Shown here piece by piece: positions 7,924 to 17,813 of a stretch of 64,000 nt of DNA. The notes under the pieces were generated by a model. The model was given only the letters and a program-made list of their open reading frames with translations. It made no database searches and was not told the origin of the DNA. The translations under genes and the position numbers were made by a program. This DNA is from Chrysochromulina tobinii (taxonomy: Eukaryota), in the NCBI GenBank assembly GCA_001275005.1, contig JWZX01003090.1, forward strand, positions 1 through 64,000. Direction: 5' to 3'. Each line of letters begins with the position of its first letter. Position 1 is the stretch's first letter.

Positions 7924-8125
7924 TCATCGGTCCTGAAGGAACGACGTGAGTACATCTGGAGGGCAGGTGCCCAAGATGAAGATAACGAGGAGCAAGATAA
8001 TCAGGAGCGTGGGCTGGCCTCCGTCGGCACCCTTCGGCGGATGCTTAAGTGCCACCTTCGGCCTCGGCGGCGGTGGTGAAGGCGGCGGTGGCGGCGGCGA
8101 GGGTGGAGACGGCGAGGGTGGAGGC

Positions 8126-8166
<41 letters not shown>

Positions 8167-8319
8167 ACCTGAGAGCTCAGGAGAGAGCTCCATGGCAGCG
8201 GGCTCCAGTTCCTGTCGCGGTCGCGCGCGCTCGCTGCTGTAGAAGACCAGAGCGACTAGCAGCAGTGCAATGCCGCCGGTCCGGAGGACCGCTGGTCCGG
8301 AGGACGACCTCGTCAGCAT
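7924..8319 (-). CDS. Small membrane protein with a polyproline linker between two hydrophobic helices (3' end may be spliced)
   Basis: GGIALLLVALVFY, then a long poly-Pro/SP tract, then LLIILLLVIFILG. Confidence 0.55.
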
Positions 8320-8639
8320 GCCGCAGAATTCACCGGCGGTGCGAAGGTCCTCACGAAATCGGTGATCGCCAGCCGATTTAGCGAATGCAAAAGTTAGAAG
8401 TTTGTCTTTGAAGTTTGTATTTCAAACTTGGGCCGGCGTCAACATGCCATCGGGGAGGTGGAGCATTCCGCGCGCAGCGCATTCACACGTCGCACACACA
8501 ATTGCACCAATCATAAAAAAAGGCTCGTCGTGTCAGCGTAACAGGAATCGAGAGTGGAGGCCGGCCCCCTTCCGGGTGCACGCGCCAGAACCCAAACGCG
8601 AGCGCAAGCACAGGACATCTAACCACCGCGTAAGCCGTC

Positions 8640-10026
8640 TCAGAAAAGGTCATCCAGGTTGTTGATCGAGGCCTTGATGTTCTTGATATGCTTGTGTCCG
8701 AGGAACTCCTTGTCCAGGGACTCAACGCCCATCGCGTCGATAGCCTGCAGGCCACGCTTGCCCATCGCTGCATCCGCGACCGTGTCGCGCGCGAGCACGT
8801 CGACAAACTCCTCGTAGCTGATGCTGCCGTTTCCGTCCTTGTCGCACGCGTCGATGATGGACTGGAATCGCCCCCTGTCCATTTGGAGGTTGAACCGATC
8901 AAAGGCGTGATAGAGCTCCTTGGGCGAAAGCGTTCCCGAAGCGTCCAGGTCGAGGTCTTGGAAGGCCTTGCGCATATTGGAGAACTTAGCGTTGATCGCA
9001 TCGCGTGCCTGATTCAGCGCGGCCTTTTTCTGCGCCTCCGTCTGGACGGGCGCATTGGCGGAGGCGGCCATCATGGTCTCGTAGTCTTTGTTGATGGTGG
9101 CCTTGTCATTCTTGTAAAAGCGATTGCCCTCATTCTTGAGGAACTCCTTGCTCAGGGATTCGACACCCATCGCTTCGAGAGCCTGCATATCGCGCTTGCC
9201 CCATCGCCGCAATTGTCACCGTGTCGCGCGCGAGAACATCTACGAACTCCTTATAGTCGATGGAGCCGTCGCCGTCCGCATCGCACGCGGCGATAATCTC
9301 CTTCAGCTTCTTCTTGTCGAGCGGTACGTTGAACATGTCGAGCGCTTGCGCAAGCTCCTTCTCATTCAGCGTACCCGAGTGGTCGAGGTCGATGTATTGG
9401 AAGGCCTTGAACATGTCCTTGAACTTGTTGTTGATTGCATCCTGCGCTTGCATGACCATCGAGCTCTTCTTGAGCGCCTCCATCTTCTTCTTCTTTGCTG
9501 CCTTCTCCGCCATCGCAGCGGCGTTCAAGGCTCCCCCCGCTCGAGCAGCCTCGGCAGCGGCAGCGGCATCGGCGGCGGCGGCGGCGGCTTGACGCGCCTC
9601 CCGCCGGAGCCGCGCGCGCTCCTTGCGCTCGAGCGCTTGGGCGTAGAGCTCCGACGCGAGCACCGCGGGTCGGTCGTGCTTGGGGAACGGAGGCGGCGTC
9701 ATGCGCGACTGCTTTTCGGCATCCGCCTTCATGAGCGCCAGCTTGGAGTACTTATCGAGGGAACGAATTGCAGGTAGCTTTGGTTTGGGGCTCGCGGAGG
9801 GATCAAAAGCAGAAGCCCCCGGGATGTCTATCGCTGGGAACGAGACTGAAGTTTTCAATTTTGGCATGCCAAGATTAGGGTCCGTGCGCACGCGGCGCAT
9901 AATCGCAGTGCCTGCGAAAGGGTTGCGCTCGTGGACACCCTGTACATACTGCTTCCAGAAGTCACCCTCTGGCCGTCTGCCAGTCTCATCGAACCTGCTG
10001 ATCAGTGTCGACGCGGAGCGACGCAT
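8640..10026 (-). CDS. EF-hand calcium-binding protein with a duplicated EF-hand-pair module (+1 frameshift at 9199-9202)
   Basis: EF loops DLDHSGTLNEKE, DADGDGSIDYKE, DLDASGTLSPKE, DKDGNGSISYEE. The two modules share FVDVLARDTV..AAMGKR..QA..AMGVESL.KEFL once one G is removed. Confidence 0.85.
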
Positions 10027-10198
10027 CGCGCCCAGTCGGTCTCGGTGCGCAACCACACGAGATGAAACCGACAGGCAAGTTTGTCACCAATGCTTCGGGT
10101 CCGTTTCAACAAGGGGCCCCTTGGTTTCAAATACACCGTGCGGAGTTTCACCCGTTACTACGAATGGAGAGATGATTGCCCGGGCAGAGCGCATCCCA

Positions 10199-10222
10199 GC
10201 CTCGAGGCCTCGAGGCCTCGAG
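10199..10222. repeat. (GCCTCGAG)x3 self-complementary tandem repeat
   Basis: Read directly from the sequence. Confidence 0.85.
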
Positions 10223-10300
10223 GGGGCCTCTTCAGCCTGGGATCAAGGGCCTGTGATGCGCTCTGCCCGGGCTATCATCTGATACCGGTCCTCTGACTAA

Positions 10301-10377
10301 GTTGAGTTGAGTACTTGAGTTGAGTTGAGTTGAATACTCGGGTACTCATGTGTACTTGATTTGAGTGACTTGAGTTT
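10301..10377. repeat. Degenerate (TTGAG)n microsatellite next to the retroelement's left end
   Basis: gttgagttgagtacttgagttgagttgagttgaa...ttgatttgagtgacttgagt. Confidence 0.85.
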
Positions 10378-10398
10378 CGTGAGCATGTCGCTAATTAG

Positions 10399-11030
10399 TC
10401 AGCGCGTCGCTAAAAGTCGCTAAACCGACCAGGGTAAACCGGTAACCGCAACGGCTACACGGACCGAGGTCTCTAGGCAAGCTTGCGATCCGTTTCTCCC
10501 TTGTCCGTCTAAGTCCAAGGGCGTACTTGGATTGTGGGTCCTTTCGTTTGTGTGTGGCGCTTTGTTTGTTTGTGTGTGTGGGTGCGCCGCCCTCTGCGCC
10601 CTCCACGTTGGGTCTCCACGGGACCGGTGGTCGTGCGTCTTGCCGAGATGGCAATCTAACGTGAACTTGGTGACCGTTGCGGCGCTTCAACTTTCCCCTT
10701 TCGGAAGAAGTTCGCTCGACGAACTCGTCGCGGCGTGTTCGTATAGGCGGTGAGCACTGCGTTTGTATATTAAACATACGATTGGCGTTACACTTAGGGC
10801 GACACGTGGATGAGCATTGGTCCCTTGGGGCCCCTCGGTAACTACCTTAAGAGTTGGTTGTTACCATTGGGCTAGGGAGTAGCTACGGTTCCCTCGCGGG
10901 GATATTATGCTGCGCATAATATGCTACCGCGAGCGCTTAAATCCGCTCTAGTGGCTACTCCTATCGAGGCTGGACAGGCCAGGGAACCCGACCATAGGGG
11001 ATGGTCGGATCGGCTGGTGTGTCACTCGAT
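10399..11030 (+). ncRNA. Putative structured RNA domain of the retroelement
   Basis: Many nested stems: 10876-86/10951-61, 10893-99/10927-33, 10902-10/10914-22, 10988-95/11001-08, 10446-54/10674-82, 10512-19/10526-33, 10604-11/10656-63. The non-Watson-Crick pairs are G-U on the plus strand. Confidence 0.6.
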
Positions 11031-11048
11031 TATTTATTGTACTAACTG

Positions 11049-13733
11049 TTACTGCTGTTGTGTTTGTGTGTTTGGCGCGGTTGCTGGCGCTGCTCCACTT
11101 ACCCGCATGAGTGTTGCTCTCCACGCTGCCAGTGCCATTCCGTTCCCGTCTAGGGGTGTGAAGAGCAGTGAGGGTGGGAGTCGCATCTCCACTTCAACTG
11201 CCTCTGGCGGGATGAGGTGGAACTTATCGGCCCTCGTGGGCCAGTCCGCTGGGTTGTCGTCGGTCGGCACCCAGTCGAAGTAGACGAGTACGTTGAACCA
11301 AAGGAGAGCTAGGTGCAGCATGCACACAAGCCGCATGCAGCCGGGGAAGTTACCGCTTCCGCCGACGGCTGCTGAGAGGGCAACCGTGTTGTCGCACCAG
11401 TGCATGACTGCCCGCCCCTTGAGGCGATCGCCAAACGTATAGTATGCCGACACCATGGCTAGCATCTCGGCTTGCGCGATGTGCTGTTTCTTGTTCACAT
11501 CGAATAGGAGATAGCACCACCGCGGGACGTCCTGCTTGGCGTACACCAGCGCTGGTTGCCCGGCCGGGGGTTCTAGGTCGACGAGCCATATTCCGAGCTT
11601 GCCGTCGCCTGGTCCGAAGCTCCTGGGGTGTCGCACGTAGGATGCGTCGGTGTACAAGTACACCGGCCTTCGCCTGTCTCTTCTCATGTAGACGAGGAGT
11701 GGCGGGAGCGCTGGGAGTACGACGAGGAGGAAGGCTAAGACCTCGCTAAGTTCGGGTGTCCAGGCGTCGCTGGTCCCGCGCGCGTGCCTGCTCAGGACGC
11801 CAACGACCGCCCTGCCGACCCGTATGGCGGCGGTTTGCAGCGTGAAGCCGAGCTTCCCTACCACCTCTTCGGCGGCTCCTGGGTCGAGGCGGCGTTTTTC
11901 CTTGCCCTCCTGAAGTTCCCGGAGGATGTTCTTGATCCTGCTTTCGGTGGCCGAGAACTCCGCGTATCCCTCTGGGAGGTGAACGTTGGCGAGGTTAGCT
12001 TGTACGCCGAGTAGCTTGTTGGCCGGTCTCAGCGGCTGGTGCTTATCTGCTTTTATTTGGAATCCGGCGCACTCGTGGGTGCAGCCGATGCCATCGGCGG
12101 CCCTACTTTTGGCCTCGATGATGTCCACCGTGAAGTGGTCGTCAACGTAGTGGTCTGTGAGGAGCCCGAAGTGCACTCTGGTGGTCCATGATAGGAGGTG
12201 CGCAACTCTTGCGAAGTTGAGGACGCTCGCCGAGGAGCCAAACGTGTGTCCCCAGACTACGCTAAATCTGACTCCGGCTTCGCCGAGTCTGTTGCCGTCG
12301 TCTAGGCCGCTGTAGTAGAAGGCTACTATGAACCAGTGCGCGTCGGCGTTTGGTACTTGCCTGAAGGCTCCAGCCATGTCGTCGACTGTGAGTCCGCACG
12401 CCGGCATCGTTATGCCCTGGGCGTCGTACGCCTCTCTGAGAATGCGACATGCTGTGGCGGGCGTCTCGAAGCACGGGTTGAACGTCGTCTCGCAGTGCGA
12501 GACTGCCCCGTTCTGCCCCCCGGTTTTGGCATTGTCAATTCTTCGCCAGGCGATGGACCCGTCGGCCTTTTCGCCCTGATTGCGCGCGAAGGCGGTGATG
12601 ACTCGAATGCCTTTGAGGCCGCCATGCTGAGCGGCCCAAGTTCGAAGTTCTTTCTGCGACATGGGCTTGCCCATGGTCGGCTGCGGTACACTGCTGCCAT
12701 CTGCCGCCGTTCTGGTGAGGCGTGATTCTTTGAGTACCGAGGCCTCGATCGCTCGCAGGGCCCCGGCGCGGTCCCCTCCTTCGGCGAGTGCTTCTGTGGC
12801 TTCTCGTTTCGTCTTCCTGATGACGTCCCCAAGCCAGTCTACGTTGCTTGGGTGGTATTGTTGTGGCGATGCTTTGCTGTCTTGACCCTGGGGTTGCGGG
12901 CGCCTAGCCCGTCCTCCGCCGAGCTCGTCGAGTGTGTAGGCTGCAGGTCGGCAGACTGGTCGGAAGAGCCCGCTGTCGGCGAGGGTTCCGAACGATGGGA
13001 AGCCCGCGGTCAGGTGCTTCCCGAGGTTTATGTCTGGCCAGTCGTAGGCTTCGATCCATGCGCACATTAGCGGTACGTTCACCTGGCTGCAGATGACTCG
13101 CGCCTCCAGGGTCATGATGTGATCCACTACCCAGTCGGCGAAAGGGCGCAGTGCACTCGCCGCCGCCTCCATGAGTTGCCTGCGGGCCAGTCCGTTTGCC
13201 ACGAGGCCGGTCCCGGCCGCGACCATGTAGTCGGCGATGTCCCGAATGGTGTCGTGCGAGTGCATGCGTACGTTGTGCGAGACGTGCGGTAGTGTTGTTA
13301 TGTGGGTTATTGCGTACATGACGTGGGCCCAGGGGTTGCCCGGCTCGAGGGGCACCAGCCTGTCGCAGACTGGTCTGACCCACTTGTTCCCGATGTCGTC
13401 GGCCGCGTGGCCTCCTGCCCATCGTTGCGGCAGCTCCGCCGGGGGGCGTGCGTACGATCTTGTCGACACTCTGGCGCCCCTGAGGGCGACGACCACCGCG
13501 TCGAAGGCGGTAAGGTAGTCGCGCGGGACTCTATGTGGGCTGCAGAAGCGAAGTGAGTCTCGCGGCTCCCAAAGGGCGCTGCCGGTGATGGTTGCGAGGA
13601 GCAGGGGGGTGAGTGCGCTCATCCTCCTAGCTGCTGGGATTGCCATTTCGCCGAGCGTCCTTTCGTAACGTTGTCCTGCTAACGGTCGGGGTTTGGGGAT
13701 GCATGCGTCGAGTCGCGTTCGGTCCCTGCCCAT
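11049..13733 (-). CDS. Reverse transcriptase-RNase H polyprotein, DIRS/Ngaro (YR-retroelement)-type, 894 aa
   Basis: RT motifs WRRIDN, TVDDMAGAFRQVP, GHTFGSSASV..F, HYVDDHF, KLLGV. RNase H motifs LYTDAS, IAQAEMLA, WCDN, WVPTDDNPADWPTR, with all four acidic residues present. No stops or introns. Confidence 0.92.
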   Translation of the reverse strand: MGRDRTRLDACIPKPRPLAGQRYERTLGEMAIPAARRMSALTPLLLATITGSALWEPRDSLRFCSPHRVPRDYLTAFDAVVVALRGARVSTRSYARPPAELPQRWAGGHAADDIGNKWVRPVCDRLVPLEPGNPWAHVMYAITHITTLPHVSHNVRMHSHDTIRDIADYMVAAGTGLVANGLARRQLMEAAASALRPFADWVVDHIMTLEARVICSQVNVPLMCAWIEAYDWPDINLGKHLTAGFPSFGTLADSGLFRPVCRPAAYTLDELGGGRARRPQPQGQDSKASPQQYHPSNVDWLGDVIRKTKREATEALAEGGDRAGALRAIEASVLKESRLTRTAADGSSVPQPTMGKPMSQKELRTWAAQHGGLKGIRVITAFARNQGEKADGSIAWRRIDNAKTGGQNGAVSHCETTFNPCFETPATACRILREAYDAQGITMPACGLTVDDMAGAFRQVPNADAHWFIVAFYYSGLDDGNRLGEAGVRFSVVWGHTFGSSASVLNFARVAHLLSWTTRVHFGLLTDHYVDDHFTVDIIEAKSRAADGIGCTHECAGFQIKADKHQPLRPANKLLGVQANLANVHLPEGYAEFSATESRIKNILRELQEGKEKRRLDPGAAEEVVGKLGFTLQTAAIRVGRAVVGVLSRHARGTSDAWTPELSEVLAFLLVVLPALPPLLVYMRRDRRRPVYLYTDASYVRHPRSFGPGDGKLGIWLVDLEPPAGQPALVYAKQDVPRWCYLLFDVNKKQHIAQAEMLAMVSAYYTFGDRLKGRAVMHWCDNTVALSAAVGGSGNFPGCMRLVCMLHLALLWFNVLVYFDWVPTDDNPADWPTRADKFHLIPPEAVEVEMRLPPSLLFTPLDGNGMALAAWRATLMRVSGAAPATAPNTQTQQQ

Positions 13734-13840
13734 CGTTGACTGCTCTGTGTCCGATTCGGACGTTTGCCTCCTAACTTTGTGAGTTTGTGTGACGACGCGC
13801 GCGCGCGCGCTCGCTTTTACCGGCGAGGTGTTACGTCGTC

Positions 13841-14962
13841 ATGTCGTCGGCCCTCGCTTCCCCGACAGCGTACGCGATCCTTTGCACGGAGGGGCTGCAG
13901 GAAATGCTACCGACACTTCGTGCTGATGCGAGCGTCGAGGTGGGTGCGGTGTTCGACACTCTTGCCCTGGCGATGATCGAGGGTCATAACGACGCCCGGA
14001 CCCTTACGCGCACTGCCAAACGGCTGTGGCGGGCGACCCTTGGTGAGGATCCTGCTGCGGATCCTGATGATGAGACTACGCCGGGCTGGGAGAGCCTGCG
14101 CTCCAAATTGGACCGTTGCGTTGCCCGCGCGAAGGACTCGCTTGCTCGTAGCCTGGCGGGTCATCAGGCCCGCGCGACCGATGATGCTGGTTCTGCTGGT
14201 GTCGCCACCTCCGGCCGCTCGATGTCGGCTGCAGAGGAGACCGATATGGACGCTCGGTGGCAGGCAAGTGGTCGTCGCGTCCCGGGTGAGATCTTCATGC
14301 CTTCTTCGTCGTTTCTTGCGACGATGCGGAAGTACCTCTGGCCGGTGGGCCACGTCGACACGTCGGAGGGTATGGTGGTGCGGCCGAGTTCGATGGAGTG
14401 GCCAGCGAAGGAGCAGGCCCCAATCGAGGTCGTTGCTACCCGGAAGGGGGTGCACTTCCGCCCGGCTGGCAGGGTAGGTGTTGCTCCTACGACTGCCTAC
14501 GGCATGGTCGAGCGCTTCGAGGCGAAGCTTTTGGCTGCTGAGATGTGCCTGGTCGGGCGCGAGGCGCCGTCGGGTTACACGTGCGAGGACGGTGTCGGGA
14601 GGGTGCCCCTTTCGGAGCGTGCCGTCTCGCTCACCTGCGAACTCCTGCGCACGCTGCTGAGCACCGCGGCGCATCACCCGGATGCCCGCGCCATCATGCT
14701 GTCGGCAGTGAATCGCCTGGACGAGGACGTCCGTGATTACGTGCGGCAGAAGATGTCTCCTGGGGCTGCGCTGGTGGCGGCCTGGCCGACCTTGCGCGCC
14801 CAGATCGTCCAGGTGGATCGCGAGGGCCACCATGGGGCGCCCGATGCTGCGGCCGCTTCTAGTTCCTACGAGCGACTCGCTCATTCCTTTGGCCAGCCTC
14901 TTTTGTCGAGGGTGGCGTCTAGTTCTTGGTGGGTCACGGGATCCCACGCCATCCTGGGATGA
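13841..14962 (+). CDS. Retroelement ORF2, 373 aa, helical, possibly gag/capsid-like
   Basis: Intronless ORF starting 107 nt from the RT ATG in divergent orientation. T-ending codons are unlike host genes. AATAAA at 15015. No R...HxxR...Y recombinase signature seen. Confidence 0.65.
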   Translation: MSSALASPTAYAILCTEGLQEMLPTLRADASVEVGAVFDTLALAMIEGHNDARTLTRTAKRLWRATLGEDPAADPDDETTPGWESLRSKLDRCVARAKDSLARSLAGHQARATDDAGSAGVATSGRSMSAAEETDMDARWQASGRRVPGEIFMPSSSFLATMRKYLWPVGHVDTSEGMVVRPSSMEWPAKEQAPIEVVATRKGVHFRPAGRVGVAPTTAYGMVERFEAKLLAAEMCLVGREAPSGYTCEDGVGRVPLSERAVSLTCELLRTLLSTAAHHPDARAIMLSAVNRLDEDVRDYVRQKMSPGAALVAAWPTLRAQIVQVDREGHHGAPDAAAASSSYERLAHSFGQPLLSRVASSSWWVTGSHAILG

Positions 14963-15077
14963 CGTGGTTAAGGGAGGTGTCACCCTAATTAGGGTACCGT
15001 CAATGCGTCTGTGTAATAAAGCCCTGAGGCCACACCCCCCAATCCAGTCAGGGCCGCATTTTCCACCACGTAACACG

Positions 15078-17813
15078 ATGTGGTGGTGCCACGAATGCGC
15101 CGGTCACTTCGAGACGCTCGACTTTACGTCCGACGTGCCCCCGTGCACCATGTGCGGGGGCGCTTTCGTCGAGTTCATGCCGCATGCGGTGACATGGCAG
15201 GGTGATGAAGAGGAGGACGAGTACGATGAGTACGATGAGGAGAATGATGAGGAGTACGACGACGACGACGTGTACCACGAAGATGGTGTCAACACGGACG
15301 CGAGTGGCTCGCCCGATTCGGGCGGTGGGACGCTGTCGCCCCAGGCGGCCGGTGGTGCCTCTGAGGAGATTCTCGATTCACTGCCTGCTATGTTCATGAC
15401 GGCCAAAGACGTGGAGGCCGAGCCCGAGTGCGCCATCTGTAACGAGGACTTCAATGCCGGCGAATGCGTGCTCGAGCTAGGCTGCAAGCATCACTACCAT
15501 CGCCACTGTGCGGTGGATTGGCTCGCGCGCCAGTCCTCTTGCCCGGTCTGTCGATGGGAGCTTCCGAGGGTGCCACCATCTGTGCGATCATTGCCCACGA
15601 CGACGTCTTCGCAGCCCGCGTTCACCGCGGCCGCAGTCGCCTCGGCCGCTGCCGCCGCTGCCGCCTCGGTCGCCGTCACCGGGCCGCCGCGTCATACGGG
15701 CAGCGTCGTGCCAGGCGCCTCGTCCTCGAGCGCCTCCTTGACGTTGCAGCCGCCGCCACCACCGCCGACAGTGCTCGTCGCAGGACCTCAAGACGCCTAT
15801 CGCCCTGCCGCACCGCAGCCGCCTAGCGCGCTGGCCCTCGGTGCGGTCTCGCCACGCCTCCACAGCCCGAGGTGCTCTTCGGGGAGCGCCGCCTCGGGCG
15901 CCACTGGGCCCTCGCCCCCAGCCCAGGCGCTCTTCTCGTGTCTGGGGCGAGGCAGTGGGCGCGCCGACGCCGGCGGTGGCGGCAGCAGCAGTGGTGGCGT
16001 GAGCGGCAGGAGCGGTGGCCGGAGCCTAGAGGCGAAGGCAGCCATCCTGCGGAACGAGCTCGACCTCCGAGGTGCGCCCGTAGAGGTGGCCAAGCTAGCG
16101 GCTCCGATGCTCGGTGTGCACGTCGATGAGTATGCAGGCATCTCGACCCACGCCCTCCTGGACCGCTGCCTGGACGCGTTGGCCACGCCACGCTCCGGCG
16201 GCGCCTTCTCATCTGCGGCGAGCCTTGCGAGAACGGGAGCGATTCAGCACCTGTTCCTCTCGGCGACCTCCAACCCGTCCCTCCACCCCGTTGCCCGGAA
16301 CCCTCCGCCAGCGCAAGGGGACCCGGGTCCAATGCCGCGTGTGGTCGACGCTTCGAACGCGGCGGCGAGCTCGCCGCATACGGCACGCCTCTCGCAACCC
16401 CGCCGCACCGCCTCCGCGAGTGCGCCGTTCAAGGCCGGCGCCTCCGACGCTGCAACTGCCTCGGCGCTGCAACCGCCTCGGCGCGCGCTCTCGCTCTCTT
16501 CCGTGCTCGGCTCGCCTCGCCGCCACAATCTGTTTGGCCTTTCAAGTCCGCAACTGCACAGCTCTTCTGCAGCGGGCGCGCTAGGCGCGCCGGGCAGCAG
16601 CGGCGCCACCGCCGCCGACGACGACGACAAGGAGGATGGCGCCCCAGGCCGCACCGGCCTCTTCTCCCGCCTGTTTCGTCAATCGATCGGGGGTAGTCGG
16701 CGAGTGAGCGGCGGTGCGCGGCTGCAGAGGTCCTCCCAAGCCGAGGTCGGCGCCGACGCGGACGGCCATGCCGCCGCGTGCGGATTGCATCAGATTATGC
16801 TCGAGCCGACACAGGTGCTCACACTGCCCGGTGGCGCCCGCGGCTTTTACGCGTACGCGGAACCGTCGCCGCTGCCGCCGCCTCCCGCACCGCCGCCTCC
16901 CGCGCCGTCGCCGTCCGCATCCACAGTGCAGCCTCCTGCGCCCGCGTCGCCGTCCGCAAGCACCCGCGCCCTCGGCACATCCACGTCCTCCTCGGCGTCT
17001 TCTTCGCCCGCGTCCGCGGCGATGCCCATGCCCAACACGACGCTCACGCCAAGGCCTCATTCGGAAGCCGCGCTCGCAACGGCGCTCGCGTCCGAAGCTG
17101 TGAGCGGCGCGGGCGGCGCGGGCGCCGCCGACGGCCGCGCGGCCGTCAGCCGAGCGGGTCGTGGGGTCGAAACGACCGAGTCCCGCGCCGTGATGGGCGC
17201 GCGAGGCGAGGGTCTCGAACTCATTTGGATCCCAGCAGCCGCCGTCACGCCGACGCACCTGTCGCGCAAGGTTTTGGTAGCCTACCGGGCGGAGCGCTCT
17301 GCTGGGCGCGTCCTCTACTCACGGGACGTGCCGATCAATCAGGAGGCGGCGGCGCGTGCCTACCGCGGCCTCGTGCTCGCTGCCAAGAAAAGCTTCATAC
17401 GTCAGCACCAAGGGCAGCCGGGGCATGGGCAAGCGGGCCAGCCGAGTAGAGATCGAGATCGAGATCGAGATCGAGATGTGATTCGGCTGCGTGCCCTCGA
17501 ACGCTCGTGCTCGCTTCTCGACACCGACTCCTACACCGGCGCGGCAGCGACCGGCACCGGCGGCAGCCGCCCCCCCGACCGCCCGAGCCCCCGCCAACCC
17601 GCCCGGCGGCAGCGCCACCCCGCCCGCCCATGCAGCGAGAGGCGCATGCAGATGCGCAACGAACATCGCCTCCTTCAGGCAGTCGGGCATTCCCTCGCAC
17701 AGCCCTGTGGGCGGGCCCTCGGCCAGTCGTGGAGGGAGGGGCGCTGCCGCCGCTGCTGCCGCAGGATGGATGACCGAAGATGGATCCGTCGAGCTGTAGT
17801 ACTGTGCATCTGA
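15078..17813 (+). CDS. RING-H2 E3 ubiquitin ligase with N-terminal zinc ribbon (RNF126/RNF115-like) and long low-complexity tail
   Basis: MWWCHEC...CTMCGGAFVE, then CAICNEDF...LGCKHHYHRHCAVDWL...SCPVCRWEL. The final ~80 codons are uncertain (alternative frame ends at 17799). Confidence 0.85.
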   Translation: MWWCHECAGHFETLDFTSDVPPCTMCGGAFVEFMPHAVTWQGDEEEDEYDEYDEENDEEYDDDDVYHEDGVNTDASGSPDSGGGTLSPQAAGGASEEILDSLPAMFMTAKDVEAEPECAICNEDFNAGECVLELGCKHHYHRHCAVDWLARQSSCPVCRWELPRVPPSVRSLPTTTSSQPAFTAAAVASAAAAAAASVAVTGPPRHTGSVVPGASSSSASLTLQPPPPPPTVLVAGPQDAYRPAAPQPPSALALGAVSPRLHSPRCSSGSAASGATGPSPPAQALFSCLGRGSGRADAGGGGSSSGGVSGRSGGRSLEAKAAILRNELDLRGAPVEVAKLAAPMLGVHVDEYAGISTHALLDRCLDALATPRSGGAFSSAASLARTGAIQHLFLSATSNPSLHPVARNPPPAQGDPGPMPRVVDASNAAASSPHTARLSQPRRTASASAPFKAGASDAATASALQPPRRALSLSSVLGSPRRHNLFGLSSPQLHSSSAAGALGAPGSSGATAADDDDKEDGAPGRTGLFSRLFRQSIGGSRRVSGGARLQRSSQAEVGADADGHAAACGLHQIMLEPTQVLTLPGGARGFYAYAEPSPLPPPPAPPPPAPSPSASTVQPPAPASPSASTRALGTSTSSSASSSPASAAMPMPNTTLTPRPHSEAALATALASEAVSGAGGAGAADGRAAVSRAGRGVETTESRAVMGARGEGLELIWIPAAAVTPTHLSRKVLVAYRAERSAGRVLYSRDVPINQEAAARAYRGLVLAAKKSFIRQHQGQPGHGQAGQPSRDRDRDRDRDVIRLRALERSCSLLDTDSYTGAAATGTGGSRPPDRPSPRQPARRQRHPARPCSERRMQMRNEHRLLQAVGHSLAQPCGRALGQSWREGRCRRCCRRMDDRRWIRRAVVLCI
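17449..17477 (+). repeat. (AGATCG)n repeat encoding RDRDRDRD
   Basis: Read directly from the sequence. Confidence 0.8.

Follow-up and report, generated by a model that had tools for sequence, protein, structure and literature searches.

Gag and pol of a retrotransposon are normally both made from the RNA that gets copied, which is why the two genes are expected to be co-oriented, and they are so in published classifications of the DIRS order. Within this order, the repeat arrangement A1-B1-A2-B2 (split direct repeats) defines PAT, Ngaro and VIPER elements (PMC4157794, PMC9210276) and has also been described for SymbioDIRS (PMC5890265); here and below, statements on published elements refer to passages of the sources concerned. 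Inversion of the recombinase has been described in kangaroo and in a Daphnia element (PMC4157794), and the literature on the order reports that homoplasy of layout is frequent and mentions an Emiliania sequence left unclassified. Here we describe an element in a window of 64,000 nucleotides (nt) of Chrysochromulina tobinii (contig JWZX01003090.1) in which a gag-like gene stands head to head with pol, which encodes a reverse transcriptase (RT) with RNase H. The segment 10768-15056 is, as we found, very probably an incomplete copy, and one probably mis-assembled in part, of a split-direct-repeat retrotransposon of 8.3 kb. Full copies of this element have a likely tyrosine recombinase, and their gag-like gene faces away from pol.

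With Ngaro-like elements (Cafeteria burkhardae Ngaros, PMC8547959; Xenopus DIRS-53_XT, PMC9210276) the window family shares the A1-B1-A2-B2 repeats, the RT-RNase H, a (likely) tyrosine recombinase, the absence of an adenine methyltransferase domain and the presence of an extra open reading frame (ORF). It differs from them in that gag lies on the strand opposite to pol and recombinase, and in that the inner repeats lie mid-element, between the 3′ end of gag and the recombinase block, whereas those of Ngaro lie downstream of the recombinase. With kangaroo and the nematode form of PAT (PMC4157794) it has in common split direct repeats whose inner pair parts the recombinase from gag-pol, one inverted ORF and a zinc finger in gag (Pat1). 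However, the ORF inverted in kangaroo and the Daphnia form is that of the recombinase, with gag-pol co-oriented, whereas the window family inverts gag; PAT furthermore has a methyltransferase domain (PMC4157794), and none was seen in the window family. SymbioDIRS and SymbioDIRS-Dnmt3 of Symbiodinium (PMC5890265) share the A-B-A-B repeats, a separate recombinase ORF and a shuffled ORF order, but the window family is without the methyltransferase of SymbioDIRS-Dnmt3. Among our own loci, those that appear to be of SymbioDIRS type (L050, L051, L053, L055, L066) have gag co-oriented with RT and form a separate branch of the RT tree. Two distant RT relatives, P0134 and P0174, carry C5 methyltransferase domains, which suggests kinship with SymbioDIRS. 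DIRS1-like elements have terminal repeats that are inverted, plus an internal complementary region, in contrast to the direct repeats of the window family.

At the level of the order the element is a DIRS retrotransposon, and an earlier reading of the window from its sequence only (the sequence-only reading) was right in assigning the RT-RNase H to DIRS/Ngaro/PAT. Because the features of PAT (methyltransferase), Ngaro (orientation, repeat placement) and DIRS1 (inverted repeats) fail, we place it in no named superfamily; the comparison with Ngaro and PAT is one of layout, the RT tree holding no DIRS1, PAT, kangaroo, Ngaro or VIPER reference. The divergent layout is indeed as unusual as that reading had held, and the opposite-strand gag recurs in the full copies. 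What is new, as far as the published passages go, is the inversion of gag relative to pol, the known split-repeat elements varying in recombinase orientation. No inverted gag is mentioned in the passages of PMC4157794, PMC6681497, PMC8547959, PMC3266345, PMC12220804, PMC12477816, PMC7192593, PMC5890265, PMC3783388, PMC12480563, PMC9210276 and bioRxiv 10.64898/2026.05.21.726589, a negative that excludes Repbase, Dfam, Poulter and Butler 2015, Goodwin and Poulter 2004 and the supplements of transposable-element libraries, where the layout may already stand.

Full copies, split repeats and the recombinase-like ORF

Two families of related copies define the complete element. L001 matches the window over 3.7 kb at 97.7% identity, whereas L003, L004 and L005, a single locus represented by three assemblies, match it at 72%. 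The elements in L001 and L003 (8285 and 8546 nt in full) each have their direct repeats in two pairs, arranged A1…B1A2…B2. The members of a pair are nearly identical, both in L001 (A, 176 nt at 99.4%; B, 290 nt at 99.7%) and in L003 (A, about 200 nt at 98.5%; B, about 350 nt at 98.9%). Read on the pol strand, the full copies begin with B, followed by the recombinase-like ORF, the Cys-rich ORF, the A|B junction, gag (on the opposite strand) and RT-RNase H, and they end with A; recombinase and RT thus share one strand and gag occupies the other. The corresponding features of the window are:

10768..10944, no strand assigned: split direct repeat A, terminal copy, left end of the element (TATTAAAC...), from repeat comparison
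14868..15056, no strand assigned: split direct repeat B, its 3′ 189 nt, right end of the element (...CAGGGCCG), from repeat comparison
15057..15060, + strand: CATT at the integration crossover, bases that probably derive from the target, from end comparison
14867..14884, − strand: first six codons (MSESLV) of the recombinase-like ORF, inside repeat B, with the same start as P0020 and P0021-P0024

With its end sequences compared to those of L001, L003 and other copies, the window element spans 10768-15056 (4289 nt), which corrects the limits of 10391 and 15071 proposed before. Repeat A of the window has no mismatch in 177 positions against both A copies of L006 and L007, and its end sequence is also found in L001 and L003; repeat B has none in 189 against B1 of L006 and L007, and six against both B copies of L001. 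Neither is visible as a repeat because the partner copies are missing from the window. That the window stretch holds neither a recombinase ORF nor a long repeat, as had been noted, is correct for the stretch, but the full copies elsewhere have a recombinase-like ORF and split direct repeats. No terminal inverted repeat was found at the window element.

The inner junctions of L001, L003, L006 and L007 read GGGCCG-TATT-AAAC and the left ends flank-TATT-AAAC, while the outer right ends read GGGCCG-CATT-flank in the window and L001 and GGGCCG-AATT-flank in L003. We infer that one crossover joining a circle junction with a NATT-core target would yield exactly the observed ends with no duplication. 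The NATT core fits at three insertions and is comparable to the trinucleotide cores described for DIRS (PMC7192593). Terminal overlaps on contigs L008, L019, L025, L043 and L053 were not accepted as evidence of circles. Inverted TAACTTC/GAAGTTA arms about 30 nt apart occur in L019 (2523), L022 (3008), L024 (3189), L025 (1766) and L043 (1419), at the repeat junction of a marine group, and are candidate binding arms for the recombinase.

Two ORFs, each on the same strand as RT, lie in the 3552-nt block that is missing from the window: P0020, of 728 aa, and a Cys-rich one of about 145 aa. We aligned P0020 with seven close homologues and with three distant ORFs (20-23% identity) adjoining RT in L019, L022 and L024, and found R..K..[HQ]xxRH..GxW..PxxY aligned in all 11 rows; R, K, [HQ]xxRH, GxW and PxxY in that order are what we take to be the catalytic motif of tyrosine recombinases. 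The motif pattern, which was composed after that alignment had been seen, was tried on 1679 six-frame ORFs and matches 15, each of which belongs to an RT-bearing locus and lies on its RT strand; no reversed ORF matches. Furthermore, residues 170-610 of P0020 score 0.95-0.96 to unnamed clusters of the ESM Atlas, where shuffled proteins attain 0.95 once per 100, and among the neighbours at 0.95 are clusters of Phage_integrase (34% of members), of ALOG/Phage_integrase (93%/86%) and of NDC10_II (91%). Judging by motif order and Atlas neighbours, full copies bear, with high likelihood, a tyrosine recombinase instead of a DDE integrase.

Several results pull the other way. Pfam, PHROG and PDB-sequence searches gave no recombinase match for any of the nine aligned members; the predicted fold of P0020 is unusable (predicted local distance difference test, pLDDT, 38), its structure search returning only generic helices (best Z 5.2); the profile-profile link to dinoflagellate-like recombinase ORFs was not made (probability 0.7%); and the first motif histidine of P0020 is a glutamine. 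A split-repeat retrotransposon whose 728-aa ORF is no tyrosine recombinase, integrating by some other chemistry, would suit both the missing profile and structure matches and the presence of Q where HxxR has its first H. We nevertheless consider it unlikely, given the ordered catalytic motif in the distant relatives L019, L022 and L024, which keep that H, the three recombinase-fold families among the Atlas neighbours at 0.95, and ends that fit a shared core and an insertion free of target duplication.

The Cys-rich ORF (L001 5274-5891, L003 4988-5644) lies between recombinase and inner A and reads CxxCGE...CxxC...CxxC...CxxC; it is kept in both families and has no Pfam match.

The pol and gag-like genes and their divergent layout

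The genes within the window element and the signals around them are as follows:

11049..13733, − strand: pol, with a conserved N-terminal region followed by RT (YVDD) and RNase H; ORF of 894 aa (P0001), start likely at 13646
13647..13840, no strand assigned: pol/gag spacer between the divergent starts, predicted bidirectional promoter
13841..14962, + strand: gag-like ORF of 373 aa (P0002), broken at about codon 342 (14867), the last 31 codons coming from repeat B
15015..15020, + strand (gag strand): AATAAA, possible gag polyadenylation signal (predicted), within repeat B

The catalytic residues of P0001 are HYVDD (D531/D532) in the RT and D696-E756-D781-D830 in the RNase H, and these Asp and Glu are invariant across 108 sequences (P0001 and the 107 relatives aligned). 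Folded with the alignment of the 107 relatives, residues 332-868 reached a pLDDT of 92.5, and this core model matched the RT-RNase H of murine leukaemia virus, human immunodeficiency virus 1 and cauliflower mosaic virus (CaMV) with a Foldseek E of about 1e-13; by its modelled fold, the window pol is an RT with an RNase H of the LTR (long terminal repeat)/retroviral type. A PDB sequence search returned nothing with P0001 and CaMV RT alone (E 0.017) with the RT alignment, while a profile of six close RTs found 6546 proteins at E <=0.001 among 1.84 billion representatives searched. The conserved start of pol is probably Met30 (13646) and not the ATG at 13733, because the latter is mutated in L001 and P0015 begins at Met30. 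The protein ends about 60 residues past the last RNase H Asp, and no methyltransferase domain was seen after the RNase H of the window pol. Pfam gave zero matches for all element ORFs of L001 and L003, and likewise for both main ORFs and three antisense/flank ORFs of the window; being invisible to Pfam, the family is probably under-annotated in haptophyte genomes.

About 300 residues N-terminal to the RT (12741-13646, − strand) are kept in distant relatives (WPD...GF...G...DSG) and fit no known family. In P0106, a related RT-RNase H is fused with a SET domain (E 1e-10). Four related loci have a convergent minus-strand ORF directly past the RT (L034 2069-3535, L037 4028-4915, L048 791-2311, L061 2346-3917). 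These ORFs were tested as inverted recombinases and ruled out; three of the four resemble C5 DNA methyltransferases, weakly (E 1e-4 to 7e-4, just below the Pfam cut-off), and perhaps represent another capture of a cytosine methyltransferase by related elements.

Of 12 matches to P0002, eight are full-length relatives of 475-490 aa with a CCCH finger (zf-CCCH) at the C-terminus. P0002 stays aligned with them as far as about residue 342; there a 708-nt deletion, with short microhomology, joins the ORF to B. The ORF 13841-14962 would accordingly be a truncated gag, a name that we take from finger, size and position; its best ESM Atlas score, 0.88, is a lead only. The ratio of nonsynonymous to synonymous substitution (dN/dS) between the two families is 0.20 for the gag-like ORF and 0.19-0.31 for the recombinase-like ORF, and for pol it is 0.12 (against L003). 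Judged by these ratios, all three are under purifying selection between the two families. A 398-aa antisense frame at 13907-15103 was ruled out as a gene, having no family match and a matching L003 frame that is not open at that length.

The sequence-only reading had placed the 373-aa ORF head to head with pol at a distance of 107 nt; ORF and order are confirmed, but the ORF is broken and the spacer, counted from Met30, is about 194 nt. In relatives, the first ATGs of pol and gag are 100-324 nt apart in 13 of 15 cases and about 0 in the other two. Single contigs span the junction 13597-13888 in three of three DNA runs, with two sequence variants in X1. The divergent layout is not a local misassembly, and the worry about one at 13734-13840 is hereby removed.

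Next, we examined 69 related loci, taken from one scan of metagenome contigs. An opposite-strand ORF of more than 400 aa just upstream of RT and with a Cys/His-finger end was found in 12 of them, 10 distinct (L003, L004, L005, L008, L012, L017, L018, L019, L021, L023, L026, L037), and in L001, L002 and L044 the opposite-strand finger is present in a frameshifted piece. A finger ORF co-oriented with RT was found in three of the 69 (L050, L051, L066). In the remaining loci the upstream part was too short or gave no match, apart from four short chance-like matches; L015, L016, L020, L025 and L043 have divergent gag homologues without the pattern match. In L019, a circularly permuted 7.3-kb contig whose RT is about 31% identical to that of the window, recombinase, gag and RT follow the same order and lie on the same strands. 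In the RT-RNase H tree (54 rows, midpoint-rooted, no named references; excluding the duplicates L002, L004, L005 and L011 as well as loci that do not span the core), the divergent loci all fall in one clade with support 0.82, apart from the co-oriented loci, the labels of L009, L027 and L030 being based on the long opposite-strand ORF alone. Profile-profile comparison did not show homology of the divergent upstream ORFs between groups (best probabilities 63%, 20% and 19%, the rest <2%), and the name gag is therefore carried across groups by position and the terminal Cys/His finger.

Assembly of the locus, rival readings and replication

L006 and L007 share with the window the left flank (99.9% over 6.6 kb), the truncated gag and the B variant, which identifies them, by sequence comparison, as other assemblies of the window locus. 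Both run from B into the inner A (A2), then into the Cys-rich ORF and the recombinase. The missing block is covered at a depth of 41-69 in both of two DNA runs and in two variants, like the RT, with the unique flanks at 41-50. One further segment sets the window apart from them:

11630..12351, no strand assigned: RT segment with YVDD, probably borrowed from a paralogous copy, absent at the locus in L006 and L007

L006 and L007 join 11629 directly to 12352, and the window equals L001 at every position of 10853-13142 and equals L006/L007 on either side. The contig 11595-12381 has a single-copy depth of 51/34/42, as against 76/59/66 for 10915-11624 (about 1.5 times higher). The RT of the window had been described as intact; the 894-aa ORF, YVDD and D-E-D-D stand, but it is probably an assembly composite of two damaged copies. 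Every flanked copy examined is damaged in at least one gene, but each protein is also known in an intact version (P0003, P0015, P0021).

We think it likely that the block is missing because the assembler jumped from B1 to the outer B, a reading that we favour because the window assembly mixed paralogs at this same locus. The contigs are not all in its favour: in L002, L006 and L007 a high-copy (20-35-fold) repeat interrupts the recombinase close to its 5′ end, these contigs then enter a different host gene and not the RING-finger gene that flanks the window element, and among the contigs examined none spans the left flank, the whole element and the RING flank. Because of this interruption, and because L002 and L006 are chimeric in places, a real deletion or rearrangement has to be reckoned with, and we hold a B-by-B deletion in the source DNA to be a possible, if less likely, explanation. 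The window may serve as a warning that collapsed repeats can mimic both a recombinase-less element and an intact RT. The interrupting repeat (L006 2200-3530, also in L002 and L007) has CAAAACACAAAA sub-repeats, and its joint is a palindrome of recombinase sequence, presumably of the kind left by hairpin-forming transposases.

Could the window element nonetheless be a unit in its own right? It would be so if the recombinase-less A-pol-gag-B unit were a genuine non-autonomous derivative, multiplying with help in trans from full copies. The B|RING junction does occur in unique contigs in three of three DNA runs, many related contigs hold gag and RT alone (for example L008, with a 95-nt terminal overlap), and isolated products of repeat recombination have been reported for Ngaro (PMC8547959). 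However, ends without the inner B|A junction would not be restorable under the split-repeat model, there is one recombinase-less copy only, the window locus has the inner junction in both other assemblies, and gag-RT contigs of 4.3-4.9 kb are expected from short-read assemblers whose graph is broken or looped by repeats A and B, so that we regard such a derivative as improbable. A rearranged copy of an ordinary DIRS element had been named as the outcome that would undo the sequence-only reading. Other copies do carry a recombinase-like ORF and split direct repeats, but gag is not co-oriented in the full copies, and the window element is therefore no rearranged ordinary copy. Least probable, and in our view very remote, is an endogenised pararetrovirus-like or hepadnavirus-like agent, or a retron-like unit relying on structured RNA. 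Hepadnavirus P models are among the best for the RT-RNase H model (query-normalised template-modelling score, TMq, 0.47-0.50; root-mean-square deviation about 7), most retroviral and caulimoviral predicted structures being lower (TMq 0.34-0.43), and the repeat shows some hairpin covariation. Yet the hepadnavirus likeness of DIRS-order RNase H has already been reported (PMC6681497), IMG/VR contigs hold no relatives (0 of 49 pattern matches confirmed), there is no weighty Rfam match, and the full copies L001 and L003 have precise ends, split repeats and a recombinase-like ORF. An integrase-less, virus-like or retron-like unit, as first proposed, is thus unsupported, and with it falls the claim of an RT system that integrates without an integrase.

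For a DIRS retrotransposon with split direct repeats, the details of the replication model are general background. Applied here, the genomic RNA would run from repeat to repeat, starting in the outer B and ending in the outer A. It is somewhat more likely to be of the pol/recombinase strand, which we favour because the recombinase start codon lies within B and the G-U pairs of the predicted hairpins lean that way. This choice of strand is weakened by the AATAAA of B, 40 nt before the end of B, which also suits a gag-strand genomic RNA, and by the G-U pairs themselves, which favour the pol strand in the distant marine group and are split in the window group. L001 and L003 retain the AATAAA in each of their B copies, and a scan of 15 more distant loci showed none at a comparable place. 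Since pol lies more than 5 kb into the genomic RNA and behind an antisense gag, gag and pol would come from two shorter divergent RNAs initiated in the 194-nt spacer. RT would copy the full-length RNA, with the inner B|A junction as the template that restores both ends; the resulting circle would carry the junction GGGCCG-TATT-AAAC, and the recombinase would insert it at NATT-core sites without target duplication. End restoration, circle and insertion follow by analogy with the split-repeat model (PMC6681497).

More speculatively, the family may be an undescribed lineage of superfamily level, widespread in aquatic microalgae, with an ambisense genome in which gag and pol are made from divergent RNAs apart from the genomic RNA. 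The half with gag and pol, enclosed by the A repeats, and that with the recombinase, enclosed by the B repeats, would then be exchangeable modules. If so, the polymerase would have to locate its template in trans, the Gag:Pol ratio would be set by a two-way promoter and not by frameshift or readthrough, and damaged copies such as that of the window would complement one another. The clade keeps gag and pol back to back across RTs that are only about 30% identical, and must express and package them differently. With two or three young copies in a small cultured alga, the split-repeat replication model (strand, ends, circle junction) would become directly testable.

RNA structure and host flanks

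The remaining features are a predicted RNA structure and the two neighbouring genes:

10865..11025, no strand assigned: hairpins in repeat A and the 3′ non-coding stretch of the RT, predicted
start 10026, − strand: host EF-hand ORF, Pfam domain call
start 15078, + strand: host RING-finger ORF, Pfam domain call

Structured RNA termini had been proposed for the element. The segment 10391-10767 was ruled out as one of them: it lies outside repeat A and hence the element, varies between insertions and folds no better than shuffles. One of ten strand/segment folds fell below a z of −2 (the minus strand of B, at −2.5), and the hairpins of repeat A have single-sequence z values of −1.6/−1.7, which are not significant. 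Compensatory changes affect 5 of their 58 predicted pairs, between only two independent families; in the equivalent repeat of nine more distant loci, 3 of 20 pairs have double changes, relatedness being uncorrected in this control, and G-U pairs favour the RT strand. An Rfam scan gave one match (E 1.4). The hairpins are compatible with ending or priming signals in the repeat, with no evidence of a ribozyme or retron. The RNA runs X15 and X16 yielded scattered pieces at a depth below 10, strand not given.

The two flanking host genes had been correctly recognised, and their ORF starts at 10026 (EF-hand, left) and 15078 (RING, right) are confirmed. The insertion point is 21 nt before the RING start codon. 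The host is a haptophyte of Chrysochromulina type, near-identical proteins carrying the source names C. tobinii and C. parva.

Several repeats were found in the left flank. A 75-nt motif at 10593-10666, single-copy in the window, has a summed contig depth of up to about 30,000, compared with 50 for unique DNA, and varied flanks elsewhere, as a very frequent short repeat would; 40 nt of it recur in L027 at 85% identity and in equal orientation, about 400 nt downstream of its RT. At 10170-10280, an inverted repeat resembling a miniature inverted-repeat transposable element (30-nt arms at 93%) surrounds CCTCGAGG repeats and is followed by a TTGAG-rich tract at 10300-10375. Finally, the region 8078-9485 contains two tandem EF-hand coding segments (8700-9043 and 9138-9485), about 70% identical, which are either a duplicated gene or the internal repeat of one gene.

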